64,000 nt of DNA. Source: an uncultured Gammaproteobacteria bacterium. GTDB taxonomy: Bacteria > Patescibacteriota > Microgenomatia > UBA10105 > UBA927. The notes under the pieces were generated by a model, which worked only from the letters and a program-made list of their open reading frames with translations, searched no databases and was not told the origin of the DNA. This document shows positions 49,835-63,827 of this stretch, one piece after another; positions within the stretch are counted from its first letter, which is position 1, and each line of letters starts with the position of its first letter. A program made the translations under genes and the position numbers. Location of the stretch: the NCBI GenBank assembly GCA_964621305.1, contig CAZUOM010000003.1, positions 14,589 to 78,588 on the forward strand, in the 5' to 3' direction.

Positions 49835-50704
49835 GTGGATCTTTCCATTATTATTCCCAGTTACGGTACGCGAGGCCTCCTCGACCGCTGTTTACGCTCA
49901 ATATATGACAGTCTGAAAGTATCAAAACTATCTTTTGAGATTATAGTCGTCGATAACGCGTCAGATGATGGTTCTGTAGAACTATTGAAGAAGAAATATC
50001 CTCGAGTACAAACAATTTTCAATAAAGATAATTTGGGCTATGGAAAAGCGAATAATCAAGGAATAAAAAAAGCAAAAGGGAAGTACGTGCTTCTTTTAAA
50101 TTCGGATATTTCAGTTGTTGATAGTGGCATAGAACGTCTCTGGCAATTTGCAACAATGCAAAGTAATGCGTTTGTCGGCGGAAAGCTCTTCAACGAAGAC
50201 GGAACTTCACAACCATCTTGCGGCCCCATGTACAGTTTGCCAATCGTGTTCCTAATGCTTTTTACCAAAGGCGATCGCTTGGGCATTACTCGTTACGCTC
50301 CACAGAGAGTCCAGTCGGTAGATTGGGTCTCTGGTGCCTGTCTTATCGGTCCAAAGCTGGCGTTTGTCGAGGTGGGTCTTTTTGATGAGAGAATATTTAT
50401 GTACATGGAAGAAATTGAGTTTCTTTACCGAGCCAAACAGAAAGGGTATACTGTCTTTTTCTATCCGAATGCACACTTTGTCCATACGGGTGCCGCAAGT
50501 AGCGGCGAGCGACGGACACCGGTGGTTAATATCTACCTGGGTCTCTTGTATTTTTATCGGAAACACCGGGGGCCTCTTGCCTTGGGAGTACTTCGACTTC
50601 TATTGGTGGCCAAAGCCTTGGCAGCGATCATCATTGGACGTATGATTGGGAGGAAGGACCTTTTTGTTACATATGAAGAAGCTCTTCGGATGGTTTTTCG
50701 ATAA
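49835..50704 (+). CDS. GT2 family glycosyltransferase
   Basis: LSIIIPSYGTRGLLDRCLRSI...IIVVDNASDDGS...NLGYGKANNQG...LLNSD. Confidence 0.75.
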   Translation: MDLSIIIPSYGTRGLLDRCLRSIYDSLKVSKLSFEIIVVDNASDDGSVELLKKKYPRVQTIFNKDNLGYGKANNQGIKKAKGKYVLLLNSDISVVDSGIERLWQFATMQSNAFVGGKLFNEDGTSQPSCGPMYSLPIVFLMLFTKGDRLGITRYAPQRVQSVDWVSGACLIGPKLAFVEVGLFDERIFMYMEEIEFLYRAKQKGYTVFFYPNAHFVHTGAASSGERRTPVVNIYLGLLYFYRKHRGPLALGVLRLLLVAKALAAIIIGRMIGRKDLFVTYEEALRMVFR

Positions 50705-53700
50705 CGCGCTTGCCATCGGAACGCTTTTTTTGTTGGTTTTCATCCCACTTTACCCGAAACTGCCGCTTGTCGATGTGGTGGGTACTTGGGTCTATGTACG
50801 CGCCGAAGATTTCGTGGTTTTTGGCGTGCTATTTTTGTGGGCCGTGGCGTTAATTCGCAACAAGATTACCCTTAGAACGCCGCTGACGGTTCCAATTTTT
50901 CTTTTTTGGATAGCCGGAGCAATCGCGACCCTCCATGGGGTTCTCTTAATATTTCCGACTCTCCATGATGTCTATCAGAACGTTGCGTTTCTAAGTTTCC
51001 TGCGGCGCATCGAGTATATGAGCATGTTTTTCGTGGCCTTTAGCGCGACGAAGGGGAAGGGCAATATCCGCCATGTTATCGCCGTTTTGGCAGCCACACT
51101 GTTTTTAGTGACAGTCTATGGAATCGGTCAAAAGTACTTAGGATTTCCGGCCTTTTTGACGATGAACGAAGAATTTGCCAAAGGTTGGGTGATACGACTT
51201 TCACCACTGTCGCGCATTTCTTCTACTTTTGGCGGCCACTACGATTTTGCAGCCTACCTTGTGCTTGTGGTTCCGATCATAGCCAGTGTCCTTTTTGTGT
51301 TTCGACATTGGCTATTACGAACGGTGTTGATACTTCTTATTCTACTTTCTGCAATCGCTATGTTTATGACGGTATCGAGAATATCTTTTCTTGCGCTGGT
51401 TGCCGCTATCGCTTTGGTATTGCTGTTTCACAAAAGTAAACTTGTCTTAGTAGCTATACCGGCAGCGGCTCTTGCAGCAGCAGCGACAATCATTGTCTCG
51501 CCGACGCTTCTTTCGCGTTTTGGCAGCACGGTCAAAGAGATCGATGTTATTGTGGATGCCAAAACGCAGCGCGTAATCGGACACCCTCGGGAAGTTCCCA
51601 ATACCTATTTTGTTGATAAGGTCATTCATCAGCAGTTCCTTACTGACATTTCTGATGTTTCACTAACTGCCAGTGCGTCTGCAGATGTTGTCATTCCTTA
51701 TAAAAATCTTCCCGCCTCCGTTGTTCTTTTGACCCAACCCAGCGCGCCAACGGGGGAAGATTTACCACCCGGAACAGGTTATATCAACTTATCGCTTTCT
51801 CCTATCAAAAGAAAAATCGGAAATTTTTATTATGAACCCAAAAAGGCTGTACCGGCAGCTGGCGGACCGGTTTTTGTAATCAATGGAAATTTTTTGGTAA
51901 GGCGCGTATTAACCTATGATTTATCATTTACCACAAGATTTCAGGGCGGATGGCCGCGTACTCTTGCTGCTTTTAAACGAAATGTGTTTTTTGGTAGCGG
52001 CTACGGTTCGGTGGGTCTAGCGGTTGACAACAGTTACCTGCGTATGCTCGGAGAGACAGGGATATTTGGCTTTGCTTCGTTTCTCGGAATATTTCTGATC
52101 ATGGCTATTGTGATAAGAAAAAAATTCTCGAGTCTCACAGATCATCTTGAAAAAAGTTTTCTGGTTGGTTTTTGTGCAGGGCTGGTAGGTTTGGCATTTA
52201 ACGCGCTATTTATAGACGTTTTTGAAGCTTCGAAAGTTGCGTTCGTGTTATGGATTTTGGCAGGAATTGCAATGGGAATACTTGTTGGCTACCGAGACAG
52301 CACCGTTAAACTCGTCAAGGAGCTTCGAACTGCCATCTCCTCTTCCGTTGCCGTGGTTTTGTCGTTGTTTGTTGTTGCAATTTTGATTTATTCTCCACTA
52401 CTCCGAAATGGATTCGTCGGCGATGACTTTACCTGGTTCCGCTGGGTTTCTGATTGTGGTGCCAGCGAGATAGTACAGCGATGCCCTCCTGCTATTTCGA
52501 CGATCCAAGATTTTTTTACTAATGCCAGTGGATTTTTTTACCGGCCAGGAGCAAAAATATATTTTTTAGCTATGTACTGGTTGTTCTGGCTAAACCAAAA
52601 CGCCTACCACGTCGTTTCACTGCTTTTACATTTTGGGGTTAGCGTCCTAGTTTTTTTCCTTGCCAAGAAGATAGTCAAAACGATTCTTGCCTCTGCGGCA
52701 GTGGCATTTCTGTTTCTCCTGTCAAGCGGGACGATTGAGGCAGTTCATTGGATCTCTGCGACAGGATTCCTCTGGGCGACAGCCTTTTCTCTTTTGAGCT
52801 TACTCGCATTTATCTCGTGGCAAGAAAAAAGAAAGACGTTTCTTTTTTCGGCTACCCTTATATTTTTCGTCTTGGCGCTTCTGTTTCATGAGTTAGCTAT
52901 TGTTACGCCCTTATTGTATTTGGTGTACGTATTTGTAGCAGGCGGTGCTGTTCCAAAGGTTCTTTTTTCACCTATACCTCTCTACCTTATCGTGAGATTC
53001 TTGGCTGGCAGCCACTGGTTTAGCGGAGATTACAATTATAATCTCTTTAAATTACCTTTTAACGCGGTTGGCAACTCCTTAGGATATTTCTCACTCGCCC
53101 TGTTTGGTCCGGCTTCGACTCCATTTTACTCTTCTCTTAGAAATTTACTCAGAGACAACATTTTAATAGCTGTTGGTGCAATTGCGCTACTTCTTCCATC
53201 TGTTTTTTATACAGGAAAGCAATTTTTTATTCGACTTCAAAAAGACAACCAAAAAGCATTTTTGTTCGGTTTGTTATTTTTTCTAGCTTCTTTGCTTCCT
53301 TTTCTAGGCTTGGGAAACATGTCGTCACGATATGGTTATGTTGCCGCTATTGGCGTAATGTTTATGTTAGTGGTTTTTCTCAAAAATCTATATACGTTTT
53401 TGTTAGGCAATGGTCGAGCAATTGCCTTATTAGGAATAACGATTACGGTAAGCTCGTTTAGTCTGTTTCAACTTATTCAACAGCAGCAGTTGCATAGCGA
53501 CTGGTATGAGGCAGGTGAAAAAACTAAAAGGTTTATTAACTCTATAGCGGCCTACTATGAAGATGAGTGGACTACTCAACCAATTGAAATTCACTTGGTT
53601 AACGTTCCAATTCGCATGGGCGAGGCGTGGGTATTTCCCGTGGGTATTGATGACGCGCTTTTTTTAATATTTCGTAATCAACAGATGAAAATATATAAGT

Positions 53701-53819
53701 GGCCGTCGCTACTCGCTGCATTCGACGCAGTCTCTTATAACTCACAGACACAAAGGGTATTTATGTTCGATAGAGATGGTAACGTCACGGAACAGAAAAA
53801 AGTCAAGATCGCGCAATGA
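50646..53819 (+). CDS. Large polytopic membrane protein: O-antigen ligase (Wzy_C)-like N-terminal half fused to a second multi-TM GT-C-like domain
   Basis: 1057 aa. TVSRISFLALVAAIAL ... GYGSVGLAVDNSYLRMLGETGIFGF matches the Wzy_C/WaaL loop and HNSYL motif with N for H. Second half (GFVGDDFTWF...NAYHVVSLLLHFGVSVLVFFLAKKI) resembles DUF1736/PMT-like N-termini. Confidence 0.55.
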   Translation: MGGRTFLLHMKKLFGWFFDNALAIGTLFLLVFIPLYPKLPLVDVVGTWVYVRAEDFVVFGVLFLWAVALIRNKITLRTPLTVPIFLFWIAGAIATLHGVLLIFPTLHDVYQNVAFLSFLRRIEYMSMFFVAFSATKGKGNIRHVIAVLAATLFLVTVYGIGQKYLGFPAFLTMNEEFAKGWVIRLSPLSRISSTFGGHYDFAAYLVLVVPIIASVLFVFRHWLLRTVLILLILLSAIAMFMTVSRISFLALVAAIALVLLFHKSKLVLVAIPAAALAAAATIIVSPTLLSRFGSTVKEIDVIVDAKTQRVIGHPREVPNTYFVDKVIHQQFLTDISDVSLTASASADVVIPYKNLPASVVLLTQPSAPTGEDLPPGTGYINLSLSPIKRKIGNFYYEPKKAVPAAGGPVFVINGNFLVRRVLTYDLSFTTRFQGGWPRTLAAFKRNVFFGSGYGSVGLAVDNSYLRMLGETGIFGFASFLGIFLIMAIVIRKKFSSLTDHLEKSFLVGFCAGLVGLAFNALFIDVFEASKVAFVLWILAGIAMGILVGYRDSTVKLVKELRTAISSSVAVVLSLFVVAILIYSPLLRNGFVGDDFTWFRWVSDCGASEIVQRCPPAISTIQDFFTNASGFFYRPGAKIYFLAMYWLFWLNQNAYHVVSLLLHFGVSVLVFFLAKKIVKTILASAAVAFLFLLSSGTIEAVHWISATGFLWATAFSLLSLLAFISWQEKRKTFLFSATLIFFVLALLFHELAIVTPLLYLVYVFVAGGAVPKVLFSPIPLYLIVRFLAGSHWFSGDYNYNLFKLPFNAVGNSLGYFSLALFGPASTPFYSSLRNLLRDNILIAVGAIALLLPSVFYTGKQFFIRLQKDNQKAFLFGLLFFLASLLPFLGLGNMSSRYGYVAAIGVMFMLVVFLKNLYTFLLGNGRAIALLGITITVSSFSLFQLIQQQQLHSDWYEAGEKTKRFINSIAAYYEDEWTTQPIEIHLVNVPIRMGEAWVFPVGIDDALFLIFRNQQMKIYKWPSLLAAFDAVSYNSQTQRVFMFDRDGNVTEQKKVKIAQ

Positions 53820-55213
53820 AGAAAGAACTTTTGTTAGTTTTAATACTTTTAGCTGTCGCAATAGCAGTTCGACTTTACAGGATCGATCAGCCCATGGCTG
53901 ACTGGCATAGTTTCCGCCAGGCTGATACGGCGGCCGTAGCCCGCAATTTCGAGATATTTGGATTTGATCCTCTGCGACCACGCGGCATTGACCTTTCCAA
54001 CATTCAGTCAGGAAAAGACAATCCGATGGGTTGGAGGATGGTGGAGTTTCCGCTCTATCAATCCGTTGGGTACAGGATAAAGAAGCTCTTTCCGTCTCTC
54101 TCATGGGAGGTTGCTTTGCGGCTAACTACGGTTGTTGCCTCATCGCTGACGGCACTTCTTTTGGCAGTAATCGTTCGACGTAGCGTTGGAATTCTCGCCG
54201 GCTTCATCACCTTTCTTTCTTTTGCGATTTTGCCATACAGCATTTTTTACGGCCGCGCGATCTTGCCGGAGCCTTTTATGGTTTTTTGGGCAGTTTTGAG
54301 TGTGTTTCTCCTTGCTCGCGGGCTTCCTGTTCCTTCCGCATTTGCTGCAGCTGTTGCCCTTTTGGTGAAACCGACCGCTCTATTTCTCCTTTTTCCCGTA
54401 CCGTACTTATTTTTCCGAAAGTTTTCTTTTTCAAAGCATTTGCTTATTTACTTATTTGTTTATTTACTTATTTGTTTATTACCCCTGTGGTGGTGGAGGG
54501 TCTGGATTCAACAGTTTCCGGAAGGAATACCGGTATTTAGTTGGCTTCTTAATGAAGGGAATATTCGACTAAAAGGCGCGTGGTTTTATTGGTTATTCGC
54601 CGAACGCCTGGGAAAGTTAATTCTTGGCTACTGGGGGCTTATACCTTTTGCGCTAGGCCTCTTAGTAGCTCCGTCAAAAAAAGAAGGTTGGCTTTTTCGA
54701 TTGTGGGGGATTGGAGCAATGGCGTATTTAATGGTTGTTGCAAGAGGTAACGTACAACATGATTATTACCAGATTCTCCTTTTACCGGTAATAAGCGTTT
54801 ATCTTGGAAAAGGATTTGCATTTTTATTAACTACTCCTGTTTTTTCCAAATTTATCACTTATCCCTTATCATTTATTACCTTTTTATTCATGCTCGCCTT
54901 TTCCTGGCATACAGTTCGCACCTACTATTGGATCAATCGGCCAGAAATTGTTGAGGCAGGAAAGGAAGCTGATAAAAATTTGCCTCCAAATGCTAAAGTT
55001 ATCGCTCCCTATCAGGGCGATACGACATTCCTTTATCAAATCAACAGAGTTGGTTGGCCGCTGGGGTTTGAGATCGATAAAAAAATAGCCATGGGTGCCA
55101 CCCACTACGTGACTGTGTCGCCAACCGATGCTGACCTTGAGACGAAAGAGCTCGCCGAAAAATATACTGTTTTAGTTCGCAACGACAAATTCGCCATTAT
55201 CGATCTCAGATGA
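53816..55213 (+). CDS. GT39/PMT_2 (ArnT-like) membrane glycosyltransferase (short form)
   Basis: RLYRIDQPMADWHSFRQADTAAVARNF. R-Q-A-D-T-A-x-x-A-R-N is the hallmark N-terminal loop of PMT_2 proteins. 465 aa multi-TM. Confidence 0.6.
   Translation: MKKELLLVLILLAVAIAVRLYRIDQPMADWHSFRQADTAAVARNFEIFGFDPLRPRGIDLSNIQSGKDNPMGWRMVEFPLYQSVGYRIKKLFPSLSWEVALRLTTVVASSLTALLLAVIVRRSVGILAGFITFLSFAILPYSIFYGRAILPEPFMVFWAVLSVFLLARGLPVPSAFAAAVALLVKPTALFLLFPVPYLFFRKFSFSKHLLIYLFVYLLICLLPLWWWRVWIQQFPEGIPVFSWLLNEGNIRLKGAWFYWLFAERLGKLILGYWGLIPFALGLLVAPSKKEGWLFRLWGIGAMAYLMVVARGNVQHDYYQILLLPVISVYLGKGFAFLLTTPVFSKFITYPLSFITFLFMLAFSWHTVRTYYWINRPEIVEAGKEADKNLPPNAKVIAPYQGDTTFLYQINRVGWPLGFEIDKKIAMGATHYVTVSPTDADLETKELAEKYTVLVRNDKFAIIDLR
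54444..54480 (+). repeat. 16-bp tandem repeat (ttatttacttatttgt)x2.3 inside GT39-like CDS
   Basis: ttatttac ttatttgt ttatttac ttatttgt ttatta, encoding LIYLFVYLLICLL. Confidence 0.7.
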
Positions 55214-56385
55214 AAATTCTTTTTGTCTCAGCCCTCTTGCCGTACCCTCCCCATCAAGGAGGGCAAGTCCGGATGTTTAACCTGCTCAAGCGAGTTGCCA
55301 AAAATCACGACGTGACGCTTCTGTCTTTTATTCGGAGTAATGATGAGATTGGGCATATTAAGAGCTTGGACTTTTGCAAAAAGGTTATTCCTGTTATGCG
55401 GGGCTCCGCTTGGCAATCAAAATATATTTTGCGGGCGGCTCTAACCAATATTCCACTTCTCTATGCAACCTATGAAAACGGGGAGATGCGACAAACGATT
55501 ACCAGAGAACTTGCTACAGGAGGTTATGACCTTATACATCTTGAGCCAAGTTACGTGCGGCCATCGCTACCAGATACAAAAATTCCTACAGTTGTAACAG
55601 AACACAACATTGAGTCGAGTGTTTATAGCGGGTTTGTCCGGCGTTTTCCGATTATTTTTGCAAGACCACTATTGTTCTTCGACGTAATTAAGCTTTGGTT
55701 TGGAGAGCGACAGATATGGAAAAAGGCAAATCATGTAATTGCTGTTTCAGAGCAAGATGCAGCTGTTATTAAAAAAGTTAATCTTAATGTAGCCGTAGTG
55801 TCAAATGGTGTGGATTTAGAAACATATTCATTCCGGCCAAAAATTAATAAAGGTGAACTGATATTTTTGTTTGTCGGATATTTTGGCTGGCTCCAAAACC
55901 GCGATGCGCTAACCTATTTAATGGAAAGCATTTGGCCAAAGATAATAGTGCAATTTCCGGGTGCGAAACTTCGGGTCGTAGGTAAAAATTTACCAAAAAC
56001 TTTGGCTAAAAAACTTAAAGGCGAATACATTTCAGAAGTAAGCGATCTTGCTTCTGAATATCATAATGCGGATCTTCTGTTGGCTCCGATTAGAATCGGA
56101 GGTGGAACGCGATATAAAATATTGGAAGCGATGGCTTGTGGCACGCCAGTCATAACGACAACCAAAGGCGCCCAAGGTTTGGGGGTCAGTGATCGAAAAG
56201 AACTTTTGATCGCCGATACGCCAGCGGCAACGGTAGACGCTATGAACAAGCTCACTGCCGAGCCTCGATTAAGGAAGGAAATGGTTAGCTTCGCGCGAAA
56301 ACTTGTCGAAAAAAGATATTCGTGGGATTTGCTTGCCCGAAAATTGGAAGGAGTTTGGCAGCATGCCGCAAAAAAATCACGCTGA
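55210..56385 (+). CDS. GT4 (group 1) glycosyltransferase
   Basis: MKILFVSALLPYPPHQGGQVRMFNLLKRV...FVGYFGWLQNRDAL...LAPIRIGGGTRYKILEAMACGTPVI. Confidence 0.8.
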   Translation: MKILFVSALLPYPPHQGGQVRMFNLLKRVAKNHDVTLLSFIRSNDEIGHIKSLDFCKKVIPVMRGSAWQSKYILRAALTNIPLLYATYENGEMRQTITRELATGGYDLIHLEPSYVRPSLPDTKIPTVVTEHNIESSVYSGFVRRFPIIFARPLLFFDVIKLWFGERQIWKKANHVIAVSEQDAAVIKKVNLNVAVVSNGVDLETYSFRPKINKGELIFLFVGYFGWLQNRDALTYLMESIWPKIIVQFPGAKLRVVGKNLPKTLAKKLKGEYISEVSDLASEYHNADLLLAPIRIGGGTRYKILEAMACGTPVITTTKGAQGLGVSDRKELLIADTPAATVDAMNKLTAEPRLRKEMVSFARKLVEKRYSWDLLARKLEGVWQHAAKKSR

Positions 56386-57232
56386 ACTTTCCATTATTGT
56401 AGTTTCTTATAATACCAAAGACCTCACGCGACAGTGTTTGGCGTCACTCCTTGCCGCCAAAACAAAAAAAGACTCATGGGAAATTATTGTCGTCGACAAC
56501 GCCTCGACCGACGGTTCGGCTCAAATAATTAAAAAGGAATTTCCAACGGTGAAACTAATGAATCAACACGGCAATCTCGGCTTTTCAGTCGGCAATAACG
56601 TTGGTATTCGACGATCTGGAGGGCGTTACATCCTGCTTCTTAATTCGGATACCGAAATAAGACCTGGATCAATTCAAAAAACGCTTGAGTTTCTCAAGAG
56701 TCAACCGGGTGTCGGAGTTGCGACGTGTAAGCTTGTGCAAGAGGATGGTTCTATGGATCCGGCCTGCCACCGAGGGTTTCCAACTCCATGGGCTTCTCTA
56801 ACGTATTTTTCCGGGCTCGAGCGACTGTTTCCCAGATTAAGATTTTTTGGACAATATCATCAAGGATATAAAGATTTACATGAGGCGCACGAAATCGATA
56901 GCCCAAGTGGAGCTTTTTTCATGGTCAGGAGAGAGGTAATCGACGCTGTTGGTCTTCTTGATGAGCAGTTTTTTATGTACGGCGAAGATCTTGATTGGGC
57001 TTATCGTATTAAACAAGCTGGGTGGAAAATAATGTTTTACCCGCAGGTGAGTGTTCTTCACAAGAAATGGCAAAGCGGAAAAGCCCACGCGGATGAAGTT
57101 ATCCGTAAAGAAACTCAAGAGCATTTTTCCGAATCAATGCAACTATTTTACAAAAAACATTACCAACACCGCTACGGGTGGCTGGTAACAGCGCTCGTTA
57201 TTTTAGGAATAAAACTTCATTCATTCAGGTAA
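56363..57232 (+). CDS. GT2 family glycosyltransferase
   Basis: LSIIVVSYNTKDLTRQCLASL...IIVVDNASTDGS...NLGFSVGNNVG...LLNSDT. Start at internal ATG 56363 is preferred; the ORF track begins at 56303, overlapping the previous gene. Confidence 0.75.
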   Translation: MPQKNHAELSIIVVSYNTKDLTRQCLASLLAAKTKKDSWEIIVVDNASTDGSAQIIKKEFPTVKLMNQHGNLGFSVGNNVGIRRSGGRYILLLNSDTEIRPGSIQKTLEFLKSQPGVGVATCKLVQEDGSMDPACHRGFPTPWASLTYFSGLERLFPRLRFFGQYHQGYKDLHEAHEIDSPSGAFFMVRREVIDAVGLLDEQFFMYGEDLDWAYRIKQAGWKIMFYPQVSVLHKKWQSGKAHADEVIRKETQEHFSESMQLFYKKHYQHRYGWLVTALVILGIKLHSFR

Positions 57233-57262
57233 ACTTACAAACCGAGATCGTTATATTATACT

Positions 57263-57278
57263 GTACATATATGTACAA
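57263..57278. promoter_or_regulatory. Perfect 16-bp palindrome tgtacatatatgtaca in the intergenic region upstream of the cohesin-dockerin gene set
   Basis: Read directly from the sequence. Lies in the 146-bp AT-rich gap 57233..57377, about 100 bp upstream of 57378 ATG. Could be an operator or promoter element. Confidence 0.25.
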
Positions 57279-57377
57279 AATAGATAAACTATTGAAGCTG
57301 GATCGGAAACTTTTTCACACGAAGTCATTAATAAAGACTTAAACTCACTTTTACCGCGATGAGGGTGTACCCCGTAT

Positions 57378-57659
57378 ATGAAAAATAAGAAAGTTGAACT
57401 CTTTTTAGTCTTTTTTCTCCTGTTGCTTCTATCAGGATTAATCTCCCTAACTCTATTTATATCATCCCAAGAAAGAATTAATGAAAAGGGGAAATTTAAG
57501 CCACCTGGAGAAAGACCTTTATGTACAAGCGACCTAAACTGTCAAAAGGGATTTTCTTGCTGGTATAAAATTCCGGCAGGACCAGCCGAAGGGGAAAAGG
57601 GATCGAGGGAAAATCCAGGCATCTGTCGGGACAACGAAGTAATAAATACGATCCTTTAG
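57378..57659 (+). CDS. Small secreted/anchored Cys-containing protein (hypothetical)
   Basis: 93 aa with N-terminal hydrophobic segment and CTSDLNCQKGFSCWY...GICRD. No family. Confidence 0.35.
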   Translation: MKNKKVELFLVFFLLLLLSGLISLTLFISSQERINEKGKFKPPGERPLCTSDLNCQKGFSCWYKIPAGPAEGEKGSRENPGICRDNEVINTIL

Positions 57660-57662
57660 TCA

Positions 57663-58865
57663 ATGAAAAATTTTCTTCTCAATATTATACTCCTGATTAT
57701 TACTGTATTTTTCACTCCCAATGTTTTCGCACAAGAAGGGCCAAATCCAGCTGTTTCTCGTCTACAAGTAAAAATCCTTAATAAAAAGACTATCTACATC
57801 AATAACCAGCCCTTTATTCCCAAAGGCATTTGGAACCCGTTTGTAGTAAGTCTTGGAGAACTGGCAAACCCAACTATTATCAGCAGCCGTATTGAAGAAC
57901 TTGGAAGTAGAAAGTTTAACTTATTGGTGGAGAAGATAAATTGTCTTAGCGCCTTTAATGCCTGTAAGAATGTTCTTGACGCTCTATCCCTATTCAATCA
58001 AAACAGGACCTCTCCAAACGAGCAGATCTGGGCTTTTTTCTCCTTACAGGATGTGCTTTACGATAAAAACCTATCCGAAGAAGAGAGGATCAGAAAAACT
58101 AAAGAAGTGGTCAGAAAAGTCTATTCATACCCATTTTTCTTAGGCATGCTTCTTGGTGATGAACCGGACTATGGTCATGCTTCAGCAACATTTCTTGCCC
58201 AAGTTAATCAAGCTATCCATCAGGAATTTCCCAATATCCTGACATTTATTGACTTGGCAAAATCAGATCCGACTAGCGTAAAATCATTTCTCACATCAGC
58301 CGATATCCTTGCCCATGAACAGCATTTTTACAAAACTATTTACACCAGCTACGAAGATTATCTTCCGAAATTGGCTACCGACGCGAAACAGTTCGTCGAT
58401 GCCACCAAAGATTCAAACGGACAATATCAAATGCCTCTTTGGGGTGCAGTCCATACGTTCGGAAATTATACAGGCTATACCGATAGTCCACCGACCCCGC
58501 AGCAACATCTTAACATTACCAAAAAATGGCTTGAGGCAGGGGTGACTGGCGTTATTTACTACGCCTACCAGCATACAAATTGGATCCTCTCTAAAGACTC
58601 ACCTCACTCCTGGCCAACTACAACTGGTAGTTTTGGTTCACCAGCGCTTTGGAACAGTCTCACAGATACTAACTCTTATATAAACAAAACATTGACAACG
58701 ACACCTGGCGATCTCAATGCAGACAACAAAGTAGATATCTTTGATTATAATTTGATGGTCCAAAACTTTAGTGCCACTAATTGTGGCAATGTGGCTGATC
58801 TTGACGGCAACTGTAGGGTGGATATTTTTGACTACAATATCTTGGTGCAAAACTTTGGGAAATAG
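57663..58865 (+). CDS. Secreted protein with C-terminal dockerin-like domain (type I dockerin repeats); N-terminal domain possibly TIM-barrel glycoside-hydrolase-like
   Basis: Signal peptide MKNFLLNIILLIITVFFTPNVFA. C-terminus GDLNADNKVDIFDYNLMVQNF...VADLDGNCRVDIFDYNILVQNFGK is a duplicated Ca-loop D.N.D..VD...D segment, typical of dockerins. LLGDEPDYG is reminiscent of GH TIM-barrel NEP-type motifs. Confidence 0.65.
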   Translation: MKNFLLNIILLIITVFFTPNVFAQEGPNPAVSRLQVKILNKKTIYINNQPFIPKGIWNPFVVSLGELANPTIISSRIEELGSRKFNLLVEKINCLSAFNACKNVLDALSLFNQNRTSPNEQIWAFFSLQDVLYDKNLSEEERIRKTKEVVRKVYSYPFFLGMLLGDEPDYGHASATFLAQVNQAIHQEFPNILTFIDLAKSDPTSVKSFLTSADILAHEQHFYKTIYTSYEDYLPKLATDAKQFVDATKDSNGQYQMPLWGAVHTFGNYTGYTDSPPTPQQHLNITKKWLEAGVTGVIYYAYQHTNWILSKDSPHSWPTTTGSFGSPALWNSLTDTNSYINKTLTTTPGDLNADNKVDIFDYNLMVQNFSATNCGNVADLDGNCRVDIFDYNILVQNFGK

Positions 58866-58931
58866 ATCGCTTGACAATGGTCTATTTATATTCCATAATT
58901 AGTAGTATATTTTACTATTTGCGAAACAAAT

Positions 58932-59588
58932 ATGAATAATCTGAAGCTGAACAATATTTTAAAACAGGCGCCCTATCTGACTAAACAAAATCTGGCGCTC
59001 GCCCTTTCTAAGGAAGGAGAGAGTTTAAATTACTGGATAAAAAAGCTCTTGAAAGAAAAGGCCTTAATCAGCCTGAAAAAGGGTTTCTATATTTCTTCTT
59101 ATTATCTCGATCTTGTTTCGCAGAACCCTTTAAACAAAGAGGCTTATTTTGAGTATTTGGCCAATTTTTTACGTTTTCCTTCTTACATTTCTTTGGAATA
59201 CGTTCTGTCTTCCCGGAATTTTCTGGCCGAAACAGCCTTTGCCATTACTTCTGTTACTGTCAAATCGCCCCGCGTATACGAATCAGAAATTACCAAGTTT
59301 GTCTACCGCAGCATCAAGCAAGAACTATTTTCCGGTTACGGATTCAAAGAATTTGGAATAAAAAGTATAAAGATTGCCAGCCTTCCCAAGGCTTTTTTCG
59401 ATTTTGTCTACCTAAAAAAATTCGCTACGGTTGAGGAAATGCGCGAGTATTTAACTGAAGGGGGAAGATTTAACTGGGATGTCATGTTACCGAACGACAA
59501 AAAGGAACTGGTACAATTAACGGAGGTCTCCGGCTCAAAAAAGATGAAATTGGTTCTTTCTATTCTTAGAAAGGCTAAAATCTTATGA
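58932..59588 (+). CDS. AbiEi-family antitoxin / transcriptional regulator (type IV TA, abortive infection)
   Basis: 218 aa with an N-terminal wHTH-like segment (LTKQNLALALSKEGESLNYWIKKLLKEKALISLKKGFYIS). 4-bp overlap with the downstream AbiEii-like gene is classic pair organisation. Confidence 0.5.
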   Translation: MNNLKLNNILKQAPYLTKQNLALALSKEGESLNYWIKKLLKEKALISLKKGFYISSYYLDLVSQNPLNKEAYFEYLANFLRFPSYISLEYVLSSRNFLAETAFAITSVTVKSPRVYESEITKFVYRSIKQELFSGYGFKEFGIKSIKIASLPKAFFDFVYLKKFATVEEMREYLTEGGRFNWDVMLPNDKKELVQLTEVSGSKKMKLVLSILRKAKIL

Positions 59589-60424
59589 TCGTTGACAAAC
59601 TAAAATCAGTCCTGGATCAATATAAAACCAATGCTAATAAGCTCTTTATCCGAAGCGCTCTTAAAGAAGCTCTGCAAGATTATGTGCTCAACTTTATCTA
59701 CAATGACGCCGATTATAAAACGCTGATTTTCACCGGCGGAACGTGTCTACGAAAAGTTTATGGTCTGCCCCGTCTTTCCGAAGATCTGGATTTTGATTTT
59801 ATAGACGGGTTTGAGATCAAAAATTTTGCCGCTGGTATCAAGGCGTATTTTATCAAAGGACTACAGTATAAAGATCTAGCTGTAAAAGTAAGCGGCGCCG
59901 GACAATCCGTTTTTCTGAAATTTCCCATCTTTAAGGATTTGGGGTTGGTCAAGAACCCGTCTGATTCGCCGTTTCTTTTCGTCAGGTGCGATTTTTCCAG
60001 AGAAACAATCGGCGTTTTTAAAACCGAAGTCAATTCTATTTCTACCACGGAATTTTCTTTTTTTTCTTTATCTTATGATCTGCCGACCCTTTTTAGCAAT
60101 AAGATTATGGCTTTCCTAAAAAGGGATTTTTTTAAAGGGAAAAAACAGGCCCTCCCTTTCAAGGGCCGGGATTTGTTTGATCTGGTCTGGTTTCTGGAAA
60201 AGTCGAAAAAATCCGATTTAAAACCAAATTGGGAAAGACTGATTAAGGGATTAACAGTGAAAAGCAAACAAGAAGTTGTTGAAAGGATTCTTGATAAAAC
60301 AGAAAGAATCGAAAAGAAAGATGTCTATACTGACCTTTCGCCTTTTATTGAAAATGGTCAGGTCCTTGATAATTTTGTCAGTAACTTTGGCAGGATAATA
60401 AAAGATAATGCCAAGTATTTTTGA
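59585..60424 (+). CDS. AbiEii/AbiGii-family nucleotidyltransferase toxin (DUF1814; type IV TA / abortive infection)
   Basis: LIFTGGTCLRKVYGLPRLSEDLDFDF matches the conserved GGTAL...R.SEDLDF nucleotidyltransferase motif of AbiEii. Confidence 0.7.
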   Translation: MIVDKLKSVLDQYKTNANKLFIRSALKEALQDYVLNFIYNDADYKTLIFTGGTCLRKVYGLPRLSEDLDFDFIDGFEIKNFAAGIKAYFIKGLQYKDLAVKVSGAGQSVFLKFPIFKDLGLVKNPSDSPFLFVRCDFSRETIGVFKTEVNSISTTEFSFFSLSYDLPTLFSNKIMAFLKRDFFKGKKQALPFKGRDLFDLVWFLEKSKKSDLKPNWERLIKGLTVKSKQEVVERILDKTERIEKKDVYTDLSPFIENGQVLDNFVSNFGRIIKDNAKYF

Positions 60425-60473
60425 CTATAATGATTATAATTTAGCGGTAAGGAATTTTGGGAAGACACAATGA
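60417..60473 (+). pseudogene. Remnant of a dockerin repeat 3' end (IFDYNDYNLAVRNFGKTQ*) between the AbiEii stop and the next gene start
   Basis: Alternate frame spanning the AbiEii stop translates to SIFDYNDYNLAVRNFGKTQ-stop, homologous to the IFDYNILVGNFGKTN* C-termini of the flanking dockerin proteins. Its TGA overlaps the ATG of 60470. Confidence 0.5.
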
Positions 60474-61636
60474 AAAAAATTATTCTTCTCACTTTTATAC
60501 TTCTTATTTCCGCTTTAACGCTTACCCCCAACGTTTTAGCACAAGATGCTCCGGGCGTGCCCGTGGTTCCCTTCGTTTTCGCCGTTGACATTATGGGTCA
60601 GGGGTATTCCTCTGAAAATTGTAACGCGCTGAGGACCAGAGCCGGCTATTGCTTTGGACTGGAGACAGACTTGGAGAAAATAAAGAAAGCCTACAATACA
60701 ATCAATGTGGTTTCCAGCATACCTGCATATTGGGATAGGTGGCTGATACGTGTTATTCAAAAAGCTAGGGAGAAAAACTTGGCAGTGATTATCAATAGTA
60801 GTACCGCTACAAATGTCGAACAATGGTTTACTGATTTATCACTGAAGGTGAAAAACCATCCCAATGTGATAGGTTTTCGGGTGGTTGATGAGATTGGTAG
60901 TACGAACACTATTGACTTCTGGTTATCTTATCTCAGAAAGACAAAAGCCGGTATCAGAAAAAATTCTCAAGCTCCAATTATGGTTGACGTCATTCCCTGT
61001 GAATATGTGCATAATAATCCTTCATGGTGTCAGGAGAAATATCCAGCCATGACGCTTTCGGCTATTGACCGGTATGTAAATTCCGGTTATATCGATGCCC
61101 TCATTTTATCGTTGGGTAATGACTTGGAAGCAGATTTAAAAACTGCGGTTGATAGATGGGGAGGAAAGGTGAAGATTTATGTTCGCAATGGAAGTGCTAT
61201 TAAGTTGAATTTATCATTTCCCCCGGATGCCGAAATAAAAACAAAGATATTAAACCGCCAAAATTTTATCAGGGATAACGGAGCAATCGGAACAAGTGAT
61301 TATGCCTGGAGACATGAAAGCAGTCCCGGAGACGAATATAGAATGTTAAACGCAGACGGAACGGAAACAAGTATCTATCGCGCTCTGGTCGCCACATTTC
61401 AGGCATTCGGAAGTCCAAGATTCAATTTTCCCGCACCGCCAATTTCAACGCCAACGCCTATATTACTACCCGGCGATCTCAACAGAGACAACAAAGTAGA
61501 CATCTTTGATTATAACTTATTGGTCCAGCACTTTGGCAACACCACTTGCCGCAATGTGGCTGATATTGACGGCAACTGCAAGGTGGATATTTTTGACTAT
61601 AATATCCTGGTAGGGAATTTTGGGAAAACGAACTAG
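60470..61636 (+). CDS. Secreted protein with C-terminal dockerin-like domain; N-terminal domain possibly TIM-barrel hydrolase-like
   Basis: Signal peptide MKKIILLTFILLISALTLTPNVLA. C-terminus GDLNRDNKVDIFDYNLLVQHF...VADIDGNCKVDIFDYNILVGNFGKTN. Internal FRVVDEIGS beta-strand-acid motif. Confidence 0.65.
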   Translation: MKKIILLTFILLISALTLTPNVLAQDAPGVPVVPFVFAVDIMGQGYSSENCNALRTRAGYCFGLETDLEKIKKAYNTINVVSSIPAYWDRWLIRVIQKAREKNLAVIINSSTATNVEQWFTDLSLKVKNHPNVIGFRVVDEIGSTNTIDFWLSYLRKTKAGIRKNSQAPIMVDVIPCEYVHNNPSWCQEKYPAMTLSAIDRYVNSGYIDALILSLGNDLEADLKTAVDRWGGKVKIYVRNGSAIKLNLSFPPDAEIKTKILNRQNFIRDNGAIGTSDYAWRHESSPGDEYRMLNADGTETSIYRALVATFQAFGSPRFNFPAPPISTPTPILLPGDLNRDNKVDIFDYNLLVQHFGNTTCRNVADIDGNCKVDIFDYNILVGNFGKTN

Positions 61637-62447
61637 TGCTGCTAGAATGAATACATTGAAAAAATATTTGGGGATTATTCTGTTGGCAGTTGCGGTACTT
61701 GGTACCGCTGGGTGGGTATCTAGGCCCCAAAATACACAGGAAACTCGCAGCAGGGCCTGGGCGGCAAGCACTCTGTCGTTTGACCCATCGAATGCGTCTG
61801 TTGGCGTGGGACAGCTGGTTTCACTAGACGTCAAAATCACGCCTGCGACAAATATTGTAAGTGCAACAGAGCTCTATTTTCGGTACGACCCTGCAAGAGT
61901 TGAGTTGCTAAGTATCGTACCCTCGTCTGCTTTTTCTGCAATACTTTCTGCTGCATCCATTAATAACGCGACTGGGCAAGCCAGTATTACAGTCGGTACG
62001 CCTCCGCTGTCGCCGGTCAAAGATCCAACATCGGTAGCAACCATTTCATTTCGTACGAAAACTGCTGGTTCGCCAACCACCGTTACCTTCACTTCTGCCA
62101 CCAAAGTGGCCGCGCTTAATGAGAAAGGCAATGTTGTCTCATCTCTGACGCCCGCTACGATCGCCATCCTTTTACCCACGCCTACGCCAACCCCCATTCC
62201 CACTGTGACACCCACGCCGACACCACGACCGACGGTAACCCCGACACCTACTCCCACTGCAACGCCCACGCCTACCCCAACGCCACTGCCGGGAGATCTG
62301 GATCGAGACGGAGACGTGGATATTTACGACTACAATATCCTGGTTACAAACTTTGGACGAACTGGAACAAATGTGGCAGATATTGACGGCAACGGCAAAG
62401 TAGATATTTTTGACTACAATATCATCGTAACGAATTTCGGCAAGTGA
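61620..62447 (+). CDS. Cohesin-like domain protein with Pro/Thr linker and C-terminal dockerin-like domain (adaptor-like)
   Basis: N-terminal TM/signal. About 135-aa domain TLSFDPSNASVGVGQLVSLDVKITPATNIVSATELYFRYDPARVELLSIVP...ITVGTPPLSP...ATISFRTK follows the cohesin pattern (...DF.L.YDP..LE...). PTPTPTPIPTVTPTPTPRPTVTPTPTPTATPTPTPTP linker; C-terminal GDLDRDGDVDIYDYNILVTNF...VADIDGNGKVDIFDYNIIVTNFGK. Confidence 0.6.
   Translation: MGKRTSAARMNTLKKYLGIILLAVAVLGTAGWVSRPQNTQETRSRAWAASTLSFDPSNASVGVGQLVSLDVKITPATNIVSATELYFRYDPARVELLSIVPSSAFSAILSAASINNATGQASITVGTPPLSPVKDPTSVATISFRTKTAGSPTTVTFTSATKVAALNEKGNVVSSLTPATIAILLPTPTPTPIPTVTPTPTPRPTVTPTPTPTATPTPTPTPLPGDLDRDGDVDIYDYNILVTNFGRTGTNVADIDGNGKVDIFDYNIIVTNFGK
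62170..62285 (+). repeat. Pro/Thr-linker coding repeats (ACN-CCN)n
   Basis: Encodes PTPTPTPIPTVTPTPTPRPTVTPTPTPTATPTPTPTPLP between the cohesin-like and dockerin-like modules. Antisense gives the spurious GVGVGV ORF 61874..62269. Confidence 0.8.
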
Positions 62448-62466
62448 ATTTTGGTATGCTGGATCT

Positions 62467-63015
62467 ATGGCTAAATCTCAGAGGCAAAATCATTGGCTGA
62501 TGCCACTTATCATCGTGGCATTGGTGGTGCTCGGAGTATACGCTGTGGTGCGACTAAAGATTCCTTTGTTACCCACGTTTTCATCTGTGTCGCAGGTTGC
62601 CGCGGATACCACGCTGTCGTTTGTTCCTGCGACTCTGACGGGGAAAGTCGGCGAGACCAAAACTCTTGCCATTGCCGTTTCTTCCGGCAAAAACACCCTG
62701 ACAGGAGCGGAGTTTCAACTTTCCATCGACTCCTCTGTTGCGCGCATTCAGAAAGCCTCCGCTGCATCTTTTTTTGAAAAGCCGACAGTTCTTGCAAACG
62801 TTCTCTCAAAGTCAGGCAGTTCCCTTCACTTTGCCGTCGGCAGTTTGACTCCTAAGCAGGGAGACGGAACATTAGTAAACATTACGATGCGCCTGATCAA
62901 GCCGGGGAGCATAGCTATGAGTTTTTTTGACGTCAAGATTGCGGCGGTGGGCGCCGGATCAACCAATGTCTTTCGTGCAGCCTCGCCGATTACAATTACT
63001 GTGACAAAACCATGA
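62467..63015 (+). CDS. Membrane-anchored cohesin-like domain protein
   Basis: N-terminal TM (WLMPLIIVALVVLGVYAVV), then TLSFVPATLTGKVGETKTLAIAVSSGKNTLTGAEFQLSIDSSVARIQ...LVNITMRLIKPG, the same domain pattern as 61620 and 63012. Confidence 0.55.
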   Translation: MAKSQRQNHWLMPLIIVALVVLGVYAVVRLKIPLLPTFSSVSQVAADTTLSFVPATLTGKVGETKTLAIAVSSGKNTLTGAEFQLSIDSSVARIQKASAASFFEKPTVLANVLSKSGSSLHFAVGSLTPKQGDGTLVNITMRLIKPGSIAMSFFDVKIAAVGAGSTNVFRAASPITITVTKP

Positions 63016-63827
63016 AATTGCTTCGTCCGTTTCTGCCATTTTTGGTGCTGGCATTTGTCTTAGGTGTGTTGGTAACGGCGGTGCAAAAGCCACAGGAACT
63101 CCGAAGGAAAGCCGCACCGGCCACCACCCTTTCATTTTCTCCTGCCAACCTTTCGGTCCATCCCGGCGACACATTTGACGTGAGCATACTAGTGGAAACA
63201 GGAGAAAATACTATTTCCGCCGCCGACATTAGCATTTCCTTTGACAAGAATAAACTGCAGGGCAAATCGATAGTAGCCGACGACTTTCTGACGAATGTCC
63301 TGATCTCCGGAGCTATTGGCGATGGTAAAGCGACCATCACCCTCGGCAGTCCGCCAACATCTCCTAAAAAGGGAAACGGAAAGCTTGCAACCGTCATATT
63401 TCGGGCAAAAGACTCAGGGACAACACAAGTAAGTTTTACTGACGCAACGCAAATTGCCGGTATCGGAGAGAACACAAATGTTATTATCGGGAAAACTCCG
63501 GCAACCGTAACGATTGGGAGCGGCGGCAGTGTATCCAAACCCACGCTGACTCCCACGCCACGGCGCTCCAGTCAGTCGAAGACCCAGCCATCGCCGGTAC
63601 CACCGGCCGAGGTTTCCGCCCAATTGAGTACGTGTACTTGTGGCGACGGCATATGTCAGAAAGACAACTGTGGGGAGTCTGCTTTTACCTGTGCGGCTGA
63701 CTGTAAATCCGTCGCTTCAGATGCTACCGGTTTACCGACATTGCCTATCGTGTCCGAAAAAAACTCTGAGCCCTTCTTTGTCAGTTTCGTTAGAAAAGTA
63801 CTCAGTCTTTTTGGCATCAGATTTTAG
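63012..63827 (+). CDS. Cohesin-like domain protein with Cys-rich C-terminal region
   Basis: Signal/TM, then TLSFSPANLSVHPGDTFDVSILVETGENTISAADISISFDKNKLQ...ATITLGSPPTSP...ATVIFRAKDSG. C-terminal STCTCGDGICQKDNCGESAFTCAADCKS. Confidence 0.55.
   Translation: MKLLRPFLPFLVLAFVLGVLVTAVQKPQELRRKAAPATTLSFSPANLSVHPGDTFDVSILVETGENTISAADISISFDKNKLQGKSIVADDFLTNVLISGAIGDGKATITLGSPPTSPKKGNGKLATVIFRAKDSGTTQVSFTDATQIAGIGENTNVIIGKTPATVTIGSGGSVSKPTLTPTPRRSSQSKTQPSPVPPAEVSAQLSTCTCGDGICQKDNCGESAFTCAADCKSVASDATGLPTLPIVSEKNSEPFFVSFVRKVLSLFGIRF

Follow-up and report, generated by a model that had tools for sequence, protein, structure and literature searches.

An AbiE defense cassette bracketed by dockerin-gene ends in a cohesin-dockerin locus of Patescibacteria

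The AbiEi/AbiEii toxin-antitoxin (TA) pair described here lies on a 64,000-nucleotide (nt) stretch of DNA (the window; positions 14,589 to 78,588 of contig CAZUOM010000003.1, GenBank assembly GCA_964621305.1). Positions 58871 to 60473 form a self-contained ~1.6-kb defense cassette composed of a promoter, a candidate operator, abiEi, abiEii, and a trailing orphan dockerin end (Table 1). The lineage of this cassette belongs to Microgenomates-type Patescibacteria, and its site is always directly after a dockerin stop codon. AbiE itself is ordinary; it is the embedding of this lineage that is unusual. An earlier annotation made without database searches (the sequence-only reading) had placed the pair inside a cohesin-dockerin set, a placement that agrees with the Pfam matches in the flanking dockerin and cohesin genes, and had taken a dockerin-like stretch behind the pair for the scar of a gene disrupted or replaced when the module was acquired. 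That second point is revised below.

Table 1. Features of the cassette and of the genes that flank it (window coordinates)
Feature	Position	Strand	Basis or remark
Cassette promoter, TTGACA-17 nt-CATAAT	58871..58899	+	11/12 consensus match
Candidate AbiEi operator, inverted repeat AATTAGTA-N8-TACTATTT	58897..58920	+	7/8 complementary; overlaps -10 box
AbiEi antitoxin/autorepressor, 218 aa	58932..59588	+	PADLOC AbiEi 1.6e-33, full length
AbiEii nucleotidyltransferase toxin, 279 aa	59585..60424	+	Pfam PF08843 5.4e-17; PADLOC AbiEii 3.4e-31; four family motifs present
Orphan dockerin 3' fragment (R arm), SIFDYN[DYN]LAVRNFGKTQ-stop	60414..60473	+	Out of frame with AbiEii; alignment
Upstream dockerin-bearing secreted protein, 400 aa, intact	57663..58865	+	Pfam Dockerin_1 E = 5.5e-4, 20.5 bits (cutoff, 22.9)
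Downstream dockerin-bearing secreted protein, 388 aa, intact	60470..61636	+	Pfam Dockerin_1 3.5e-5, 24.3 bits
Cohesin+dockerin protein	61620..62447	+	Pfam Cohesin; Dockerin_1 20.4 bits, just under cutoff
Two cohesin proteins	62467..63015 and 63012..63827	+	Pfam Cohesin

The AbiE operon and the dockerin fragment behind it

Both open reading frames (ORFs) of the pair exist as originally described: abiEi and abiEii are intact, the antitoxin gene comes first, and the 4-bp overlap reads ATGA. This two-gene order, with overlapping or abutting genes, was found in 140 of 151 related loci. AbiEii scores 62.9 bits against Pfam PF08843 (formerly DUF1814; cutoff, 22.5) and matches the PADLOC AbiEii profile over nearly its full length, while residues 1 to 214 of AbiEi align with positions 1 to 196 of the 199 in the PADLOC AbiEi profile. 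These matches support the identity of the pair and confirm the DUF1814 domain predicted for the toxin. AbiEi antitoxins are COG5340-type proteins that begin with a winged helix-turn-helix. The AbiEi_4 domain predicted for the antitoxin was not recovered, as the AbiEi protein has no Pfam family match even at E ≤ 10, and its score against NCBIfam TAA_AbiEi (21 bits) is below the cutoff of 150. Sequence searches of the PDB gave no relative for AbiEi and weak matches only for AbiEii.

The nucleotidyltransferase (NTase) motifs I to IV of AbiEii (hG[GS], R..DhD, K..A...R, and +DxxD) are all intact. In an alignment of 39 homologues, G51, G52, R63, D67, D69, K173, R180, R195, and D199 are invariant; motif IV corresponds to R195 D196..D199, and all of the motif residues are invariant or nearly so. 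The conserved residues correspond to those essential in Streptococcus agalactiae AbiEii, for which the motifs were defined (PMC3985639). In everything that can be read from sequence, the pair is a standard AbiE module. Its activity in abortive infection (Abi) or as a TA system is suggested by analogy: AbiEii would stop growth by transferring nucleotides, the most likely target being tRNA acceptor ends, as for MenT, and AbiEi would neutralize AbiEii and repress its transcription.

The promoter position is conserved across all related loci (designated here by L numbers), and CTTGACA is the first base stretch kept between cassette copies of different genomes. The candidate operator was read directly from the sequence; it falls below the size limit of the repeat tool. 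In L002, L006, L009, L169, and L163, the inverted repeat is perfect (AATTAGTA-N8-TACTAATT) with a variable spacer; L163 lacks the dockerin bracket, yet carries the perfect repeat. By analogy with PMC3985639 and PMC7319586, the repeat at 58897-58920 is a plausible AbiEi operator.

The stretch behind abiEii is dockerin derived, as had been proposed from its translation. Read from 60417, it gives IFDYNDYNLAVRNFGKTQ and a stop codon; the start quoted earlier is one codon off, since the preceding S is encoded by 60414-60416. The nucleotide-level comparison supports the likeness: the best local alignment of 60340-60480 with three dockerin 3' ends scores 40, ~9 standard deviations (SD) above 882 other tiles of the window (mean, 17.5; SD, 2.5; maximum, 27), and the maximum among 1,000 shuffles is 29. 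Positions 60416-60431 match 61588-61603 at 16 of 16 positions, and 60431-60466 share 81% identity with 61594-61629. In a six-frame translation of the whole window, FDYN-type motifs occur only in the three dockerin genes and in the orphan fragment, which also contains a 9-nt tandem duplication (GACTATAAT at 60423-60431, GATTATAAT at 60432-60440). Its TGA (60471-60473) overlaps the ATG (60470-60472) of the downstream dockerin gene, again as first described. The fragment represents the last ~40% of one dockerin module and cannot be a functional dockerin. Its counterpart on the other side, the left copy of the bracket (L arm), is the terminal repeat and stop codon of the upstream dockerin gene (58821-58865, ..VDIFDYNILVQNFGK-stop).

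The last two codons of abiEii and its stop codon (TAT TTT TGA, 60416-60424) lie within the dockerin-derived sequence (..GAT ATT TTT GAC..). We also considered, and rejected, a fragment reaching further upstream into the AbiEii C terminus (LDNFVSNFG.. compared with FDYNLLVQNFG..). The tail LDNFVSNFGRIIKDNAKYF is slightly dockerin-like, but it is genuine AbiEii rather than a dockerin extension, because it is conserved in homologues without dockerin context and lies inside the PADLOC profile. A 21-codon ORF (MPSIFDYNDYNLAVRNFGKTQ-stop, 60408-60473) begins inside the 3' end of abiEii and ends on the TGA that overlaps the next ATG; its equivalent in L005 reads MQSIFDYNILVGNFGK-stop. This ORF might couple translation of the downstream gene, or it might mean nothing.

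Recurrence of the bracket and its surroundings

The search for AbiEii homologues retrieved 1,770 proteins, the closest named ones from Candidatus Gottesmanbacteria, Chisholmbacteria, and the "Patescibacteria group"; ~170 of the homologue loci were fetched and compared. Dockerin 3' sequence is found at the cassette edges in every locus with an AbiEii at least 66% identical to that of the window. These loci (the window, L001-L011, L086, L152-L162, and L169) comprise 11 cassette lineages. Dockerin tails are absent from all ~135 AbiE loci at ≤64% identity. Of the lineages in which the right flank could be read, all 10 carry the orphan right copy, and the left copy was found in 8 of 9 lineages; in L005, the left copy is itself an orphan, located behind a sortase gene. 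The anatomy shared among these loci runs from a dockerin end (..IFDYNxLVxNFGK-stop) through 3 to 12 nt to the promoter, which starts at CTTGACA, and the operator, followed by AbiEi, AbiEii, the orphan dockerin end ((K)VDIFDYNILVGNFGK-stop), and the next gene. Locus L151 is the same sequence as the window. Among the viral contigs searched, no close relative was found.

Three forms of the orphan 5' edge were distinguished. The edge is intact, straight after the AbiEii stop codon, in L086, L008-L011, and L162; in the window and L005, the AbiEii stop lies inside IFD; and in L001-L004 and L006, the copy is fused in frame as VLV[AG]NFGK-stop. Two close AbiEii homologues terminate in ..VLVANFGK and ..VLVGNFGR. 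The window and L005 share a common derived junction and have unrelated neighbors, and the neighbors of the lineages in general have only cohesin or dockerin modules in common, or nothing (~11 genomic contexts). As the junction between AbiEii and the dockerin fragment is common to L005 and, before small deletions, to all other lineages, it was not made in the window locus. The supposed remnant is therefore best read as the right-hand member of a direct-repeat pair and not as an accidental scar. In four lineages (L086, L010, L162, and L152), the orphan copy is in the AbiEii frame with only a TGA between them (..IKNVI-stop-KVDIFDYNILVGNFGK-stop), and in three further lineages it is fused in frame with AbiEii; these in-frame junctions probably go back to a single ancestral junction that later underwent deletions.

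A passive scar would decay, whereas the orphan fragment has changed much less than the neutral sites of the gene next to it. Between two cassette subclades, the untranslated orphan copy (36 nt) is 69 to 92% identical, compared with 41 to 60% at the four-fold synonymous sites of abiEii. This excess indicates that something keeps or renews the orphan copy, either selection acting at the DNA level or exchange with functional dockerin ends through recurrent recombination or gene conversion. When nine cassettes are pooled, left and right copies of the same locus are more alike than those of different loci (permutation P = 0.005), a value reached only after the addition of two cassettes of the family PDC-S01 described below; for the AbiE loci alone, the trend is not significant (P = 0.057). 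The clearest left/right matches are those of PDC-S01 cassette B385 and of L169, where both copies are of a rare ..NLIDxFDYNMFVSxxGK-stop flavor.

The flanking repeats are direct and 21 to 63 nt long. No terminal inverted repeat of ≥8 nt is common to both cassette ends across loci, and the cassettes thus lack the terminal inverted repeats and short, fixed target duplications that define insertion sequences (IS) and miniature inverted-repeat transposable elements (MITEs). The arms have no invariant core, as GGGAATTTTGGGAAA, AGTCTGTTTGGGAAA, and ACCAACTTTGGGACA all serve. Across paralogues and genomes, sequence conservation of the dockerin terminal repeats extends to synonymous sites (AATTTTGGR), which fits concerted evolution. 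A restricted codon use of cassette-adjacent arms, which might have hinted at a specific site, was rejected, since other terminal repeats also read AATTTTGGR.

A single cassette was found in several contexts. Its AbiEii (P0006; 69% identical to that of the window) occurs in 66 blocks of the contig collection, and the 1,523-nt cassette has 0 mismatches among the ten contigs read. On its left side, these contigs continue into either of 2 genes, and on its right side into any of 3 contexts. The sequences part on the left in the first dockerin repeat, ~190 nt upstream of abiEi, and on the right either within the orphan copy (L156) or past the 17th base of the conserved start of the next gene (ATGAAAAAAATTATTTT). 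In all, breakpoints among identical copies are spread over >150 nt. Because contigs spanning the exact 1.8-kb repeat could be chimeras, we relied on no more than the count of distinct junctions (at least 2 left and at least 3 right). In the same groundwater population, an enzyme gene (gene C; L153:5023-6174, L154:3236-4336, L158:5124-6227, L159:5536-6603, and L161:5000-6055) is identical up to its Pro/Thr (PT) linker, beyond which its copies diverge, at breakpoints in the IFDYN repeats, into four versions that differ in dockerin end and downstream region. A mosaic of three repeats is seen in one variant, and one cassette-free variant carries ..NFGSP-stop, spacer, and ATGAAAAAAAT exactly as in the orphan copy. 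Gene C thus identifies dockerin modules as recombination hot spots in these genomes.

AbiE is not the only candidate defense module that is bracketed in this way. Two AAA_14/DUF4143 genes in the same arrays match the PADLOC candidate defense family PDC-S01 (1e-95 and 5.5e-112; L154:2042-3232 and L154:8525-9682, also in L153, L155, and L157-L161). Each has its own promoter, lies behind a dockerin stop codon, and precedes an orphan tail in the flavor of its left neighbor; in one such cassette, the left and right copies both read AATGATCTCGTCACCAAYTTTGG. A scan for orphan tails detected clear examples next to AbiE and PDC-S01 cassettes only. A literature search on DUF4143/AAA_14 returned nothing relevant.

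Brackets of another kind were found around AbiE loci outside the dockerin clade, where direct repeats of 20 to 80 nt (score, ≥40) flank 9 of 91 loci and 0 of 282 shifted controls (P = 2e-6). In L106 (Caldisericota; 2290-2349 and 3993-4052), a copy of the final ~58 nt of the upstream gene, which is not a dockerin gene, follows the cassette, and in L083 (1720-1780 and 3310-3369), a copy of the initial ~55 nt of the downstream gene precedes it. The AbiE loci of Cryosericum have palindromic repeats resembling repetitive extragenic palindromes (REP-like) on both sides. AbiE cassettes of other phyla (31 to 58% identical) bracketed by 30- to 80-nt repeats were also observed in L105, L091, L088, L097, and L071. 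The nearest relative without dockerin arms (L163-L168; 64% identical) has the same promoter and operator. At L163:225-11669, and likewise in L164-L168, it adjoins genes for PrgI, a TraC-like protein, an intein-containing TraG, and DUF3800, surroundings that look like an integrated conjugative element near dnaA/dnaN.

In the window, the order of genes from 5' to 3' is a polysaccharide/glycosyltransferase cluster, a small secreted protein, the upstream dockerin gene, the cassette, the downstream dockerin gene, and the cohesin genes. The dockerins are of type I, with two repeats in each gene, a duplicated Ca-binding loop and helix segment (D.N.D..VD..DYN..V.NFG) at the C terminus of a secreted protein and with cohesin genes nearby. 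The dockerin module of the upstream gene (58703-58862, two FDYN repeats) is 83% identical at the nucleotide level to that of the downstream gene (61468-61627) over 160 nt, and the signal-peptide regions (57666-57736 and 60476-60546) are 73% identical over 71 nt, while the central parts of the two genes are unrelated. As such, the two genes resemble interchangeable cassettes with common ends. The only orthologue of the upstream gene (L170:492-1787; 78% identical), upstream of which a small Cys-rich protein is also conserved, has another dockerin type (..DANCDGEVDGLDYSLW..DFTRDGNTDDEDYRVW..) and is followed by a different promoter and gene on a 1.9-kb contig; no empty site orthologous to that of the window was found among homologues of the flanking genes. 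For the catalytic part of the downstream gene, homology searching retrieved no homologue but itself and nothing beyond the dockerin. The three adjacent genes from 61620 to 63827 match Pfam Cohesin with E values of 4.6e-7, 5.8e-6, and 1.2e-9 and are partner modules, which we regard as context rather than as part of the cassette. Across the Pro/Thr linker (PTPTPTP..) of the cohesin+dockerin gene (61950-62400), the GC content climbs to 0.55 with a strongly negative GC skew; as a result, the opposite strand contains a long ORF (61874-62269) that is spurious. Two large ORFs (50646-53819, 1,057 aa; 53816-55213, 465 aa), which lie after the glycosyltransferase genes and before the dockerin set, have no Pfam match at E ≤ 1e-4. 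The window contains no tRNA genes, and an Rfam scan of it gave no family matches, attC included.

Proposed exchange through dockerin ends and competing accounts

On balance, we consider it probable that a recombinase-less defense cassette is exchanged among dockerin genes by homology-driven recombination through their conserved ends. Portable homology would be provided by the terminal repeats of dockerin genes and by the signal-peptide starts of the genes that follow, both conserved at the nucleotide level among otherwise unrelated genes, and recombination through these sequences would insert, remove, or exchange the cassette while the host gene keeps a complete dockerin. Possible routes are DNA uptake with subsequent crossover or gene conversion, and Campbell-type reentry of an excised circle. 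We infer that such exchange is independent of a recombinase: the lack of an integrase, terminal inverted repeat, attC, or invariant core, together with the scattered crossovers, favors homologous recombination over a site-specific enzyme. Pfam searches detected no recombinase in the cassette, among the scanned neighbors of the related loci, or in the 16 kb upstream and 4 kb downstream of the cassette, the parts of the window that the scan covered.

Several observations weigh against this account. The repeats that duplicate unique gene ends in L106 and L083 cannot stem from preexisting homology, and they hint that insertion itself creates long target duplications. A neighbor-joining tree places two arm-free lineages (L168 and L019) inside the bracketed group, which implies a history with gains or losses. 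Within the closer subclade, the orphan copy has diverged about as much as third codon positions; coinheritance thus explains part of the pattern, and only the between-subclade comparison is informative. The left and right copies of the window itself are alike at 13 of 24 positions, below the between-locus mean, so that this pair shows no covariation. The particular left/right combinations among the contigs with the identical cassette are unsafe, given possible chimeras. Lastly, no excision product, circular junction, or clean pair of empty and occupied sites was seen.

The scar interpretation of the sequence-only reading amounts to local gene replacement. Here, a third dockerin gene would once have stood between the two present ones, and its body would have been replaced by AbiE, for instance, through a double crossover whose left and right arms lay in successive dockerins, leaving only the last ~57 nt. 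For the window alone, such a replacement is possible: its right copy resembles the end of the downstream gene (81%) more than that of the upstream gene, and given the modest likeness of the two copies, a lost gene could have been the local source of the right one. The overlap of the fragment's stop codon with the next ATG resembles a native operon junction, the 9-nt duplication and the L>A and G>R changes look like marks of decay, and tandem dockerin genes are the rule in these arrays. We nevertheless judge local replacement to be unlikely. A junction that recurs in every close cassette relative, in ~11 contexts, is not the trace of one gene destroyed on acquisition; in L169, the PDC-S01 cassettes, and L106, the orphan copy duplicates the end of an intact upstream gene, which in the last case is not a dockerin gene; and the conservation of the orphan copy exceeds the neutral expectation.

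Somewhat less likely again is site-specific integration in trans, in which the dockerin copies would be attL and attR of a minimal, integrase-less element whose recombinase is encoded elsewhere, the long direct repeats being an att identity segment or a long target duplication, as with cis-mobilizable elements or integron cassettes. An element of this kind would leave every host gene intact, as is observed and as is the case for islands inserting at gene 3' ends, and it would accommodate both the duplicated unique gene ends in other phyla and the conjugative-type region around the 64%-identical relative. It is harder to reconcile with arms that vary in length and lack an invariant core, with breakpoints of identical copies scattered over >150 nt, and with the failure of the Pfam and Rfam scans, over the ranges given above, to find an integrase or attC. 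Retention of the fragment for expression, as the translation-initiation context of the downstream gene (GGGAAG ~7 to 12 nt before the ATG, and the stop/start overlap), is improbable. The fragment does end 0 to 6 nt from the next start, or overlaps it, in the window, L005, L004, and L162, but this role would account for the last ~15 nt at most and not for the conserved VDIFDYNILV part; in L008 and L009, the next gene begins only after a hairpin and a 35-nt spacer behind the fragment, and the multiple contexts of the identical cassette would go unexplained. The fragment is short (57 to 60 nt) and AT-rich, as a chance resemblance or assembly artifact might be; this explanation is refuted by an alignment score ~9 SD above the window-wide null and by the same feature in >20 independent contigs. 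An independent Logan assembly is also identical to the window over 5,046 shared nt (54254-59299), spanning the left junction and the first third of abiEi and ending before the orphan fragment.

Exchange through homologous dockerin ends can be extended, tentatively, to a joint reading that we hold to be more doubtful than the exchange itself, in which the dockerin-gene ends of cohesin-dockerin-rich Patescibacteria constitute an integrase-free cassette system combined with TA protection and a wider spread of AbiE. Dockerin-tagged enzymes and AbiE or PDC-S01 genes might then be captured, duplicated, and shuffled, with each defense cassette carrying a spare dockerin end. Conceivably, the TA pair would protect the hypervariable arrays from deletion. 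AbiE might also, in a similarly speculative extension, spread by bracketing itself with 20- to 80-nt duplications of the gene end or dispersed repeat in which it landed.

How small, recombinase-free defense modules move is an open question, notably in Patescibacteria, whose genomes are tiny and poor in classical mobile elements and which take up DNA naturally. If the proposed exchange is real, a cassette whose portable homology is the repeated coding sequence of a protein domain would provide a simple and general answer, and it would link surface cohesin-dockerin repertoires with anti-phage defense, two fields normally studied apart. Recombination hot spots in dockerins also reshuffle which enzyme bears which dockerin. 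The recurrence of the bracket, the several settings in which an identical cassette is found, and the second candidate defense family make this a testable case for domain-coding repeats as landing pads of defense genes; existing metagenomic reads (for junction polymorphism) and long-read genomes would allow a direct test.

Comparison with known systems

The closest characterized system is AbiE of S. agalactiae and lactococcal plasmids (PMC3985639), which likewise consists of a bicistronic operon of overlapping genes with a DUF1814 NTase toxin, is expressed from a promoter with an inverted repeat, and occurs on or as mobile DNA. Even the numbering of the motif residues agrees, with R63, D67, D69, K173, and R180 identical and G51/G52 here corresponding to G49/G50 there. 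In contrast, the antitoxin of the window is too diverged for Pfam or NCBIfam, and its candidate operator is a single 8-N8-8 inverted repeat instead of two 23-bp repeats. AbiE has been reported to stabilize linked DNA or a plasmid (PMC3985639); only by this analogy is it plausible that the module might help to retain the surface-assembly locus, as the sequence-only reading had suggested. The mechanism of AbiEii may best be judged from the MenT toxins (DUF1814) of the MenAT systems of Mycobacterium tuberculosis, which belong to the same toxin superfamily, have the best-supported biochemical mechanism, and block aminoacylation by adding nucleotides to tRNA acceptor stems (PMC7450476, PMC10435456, PMC11375011). 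MenAT differs in its distant sequence and in its antitoxin modes. Our literature search found no report that links AbiE or any TA system to dockerin genes, nor one of a dockerin-end bracket for AbiE.

With regard to the embedding, sedentary chromosomal integrons offer one parallel: they contain TA and defense cassettes, of which the TA cassettes are thought to protect the array from loss (PMC13108822, PMC11023631, bioRxiv 10.1101/2024.07.02.601686). In both cases, small self-promoted units bounded by repeats sit in an array of exchangeable genes. Here, however, no IntI is present in the Pfam-scanned neighbors and no attC was found with Rfam, the arms do not form hairpins, and the bounding repeat is a protein-coding dockerin terminal repeat through which exchange is apparently driven by homology.

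Islands at gene 3' ends are flanked by direct repeats that correspond to the 3' end of the target gene, leave the target intact, and have an orphan copy at the far end of the insert. Such genomic islands and cis-mobilizable elements, which carry a replacement 3' end, have been reviewed (PMC5704250). The cassette of the window is also flanked by direct repeats of the target 3' end, with the orphan copy distal, but it measures only 1.6 kb, lacks an integrase, has many paralogous targets, and is bounded by a repeat without a fixed core. A more remote parallel is provided by orphan cdiA-CT/cdiI and rhs-CT/immunity modules, which adjoin short conserved coding fragments and are swapped via homologous recombination. 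There, the fragment precedes the module and recombination alters the toxin tip of the main gene, whereas in the present case a complete, independent operon comes first, the fragment trails it, and the product of the host gene is unchanged. In all, the arrangement most resembles the TA and defense cassettes of integrons and the islands at gene 3' ends, minus the integrase and the att sites.

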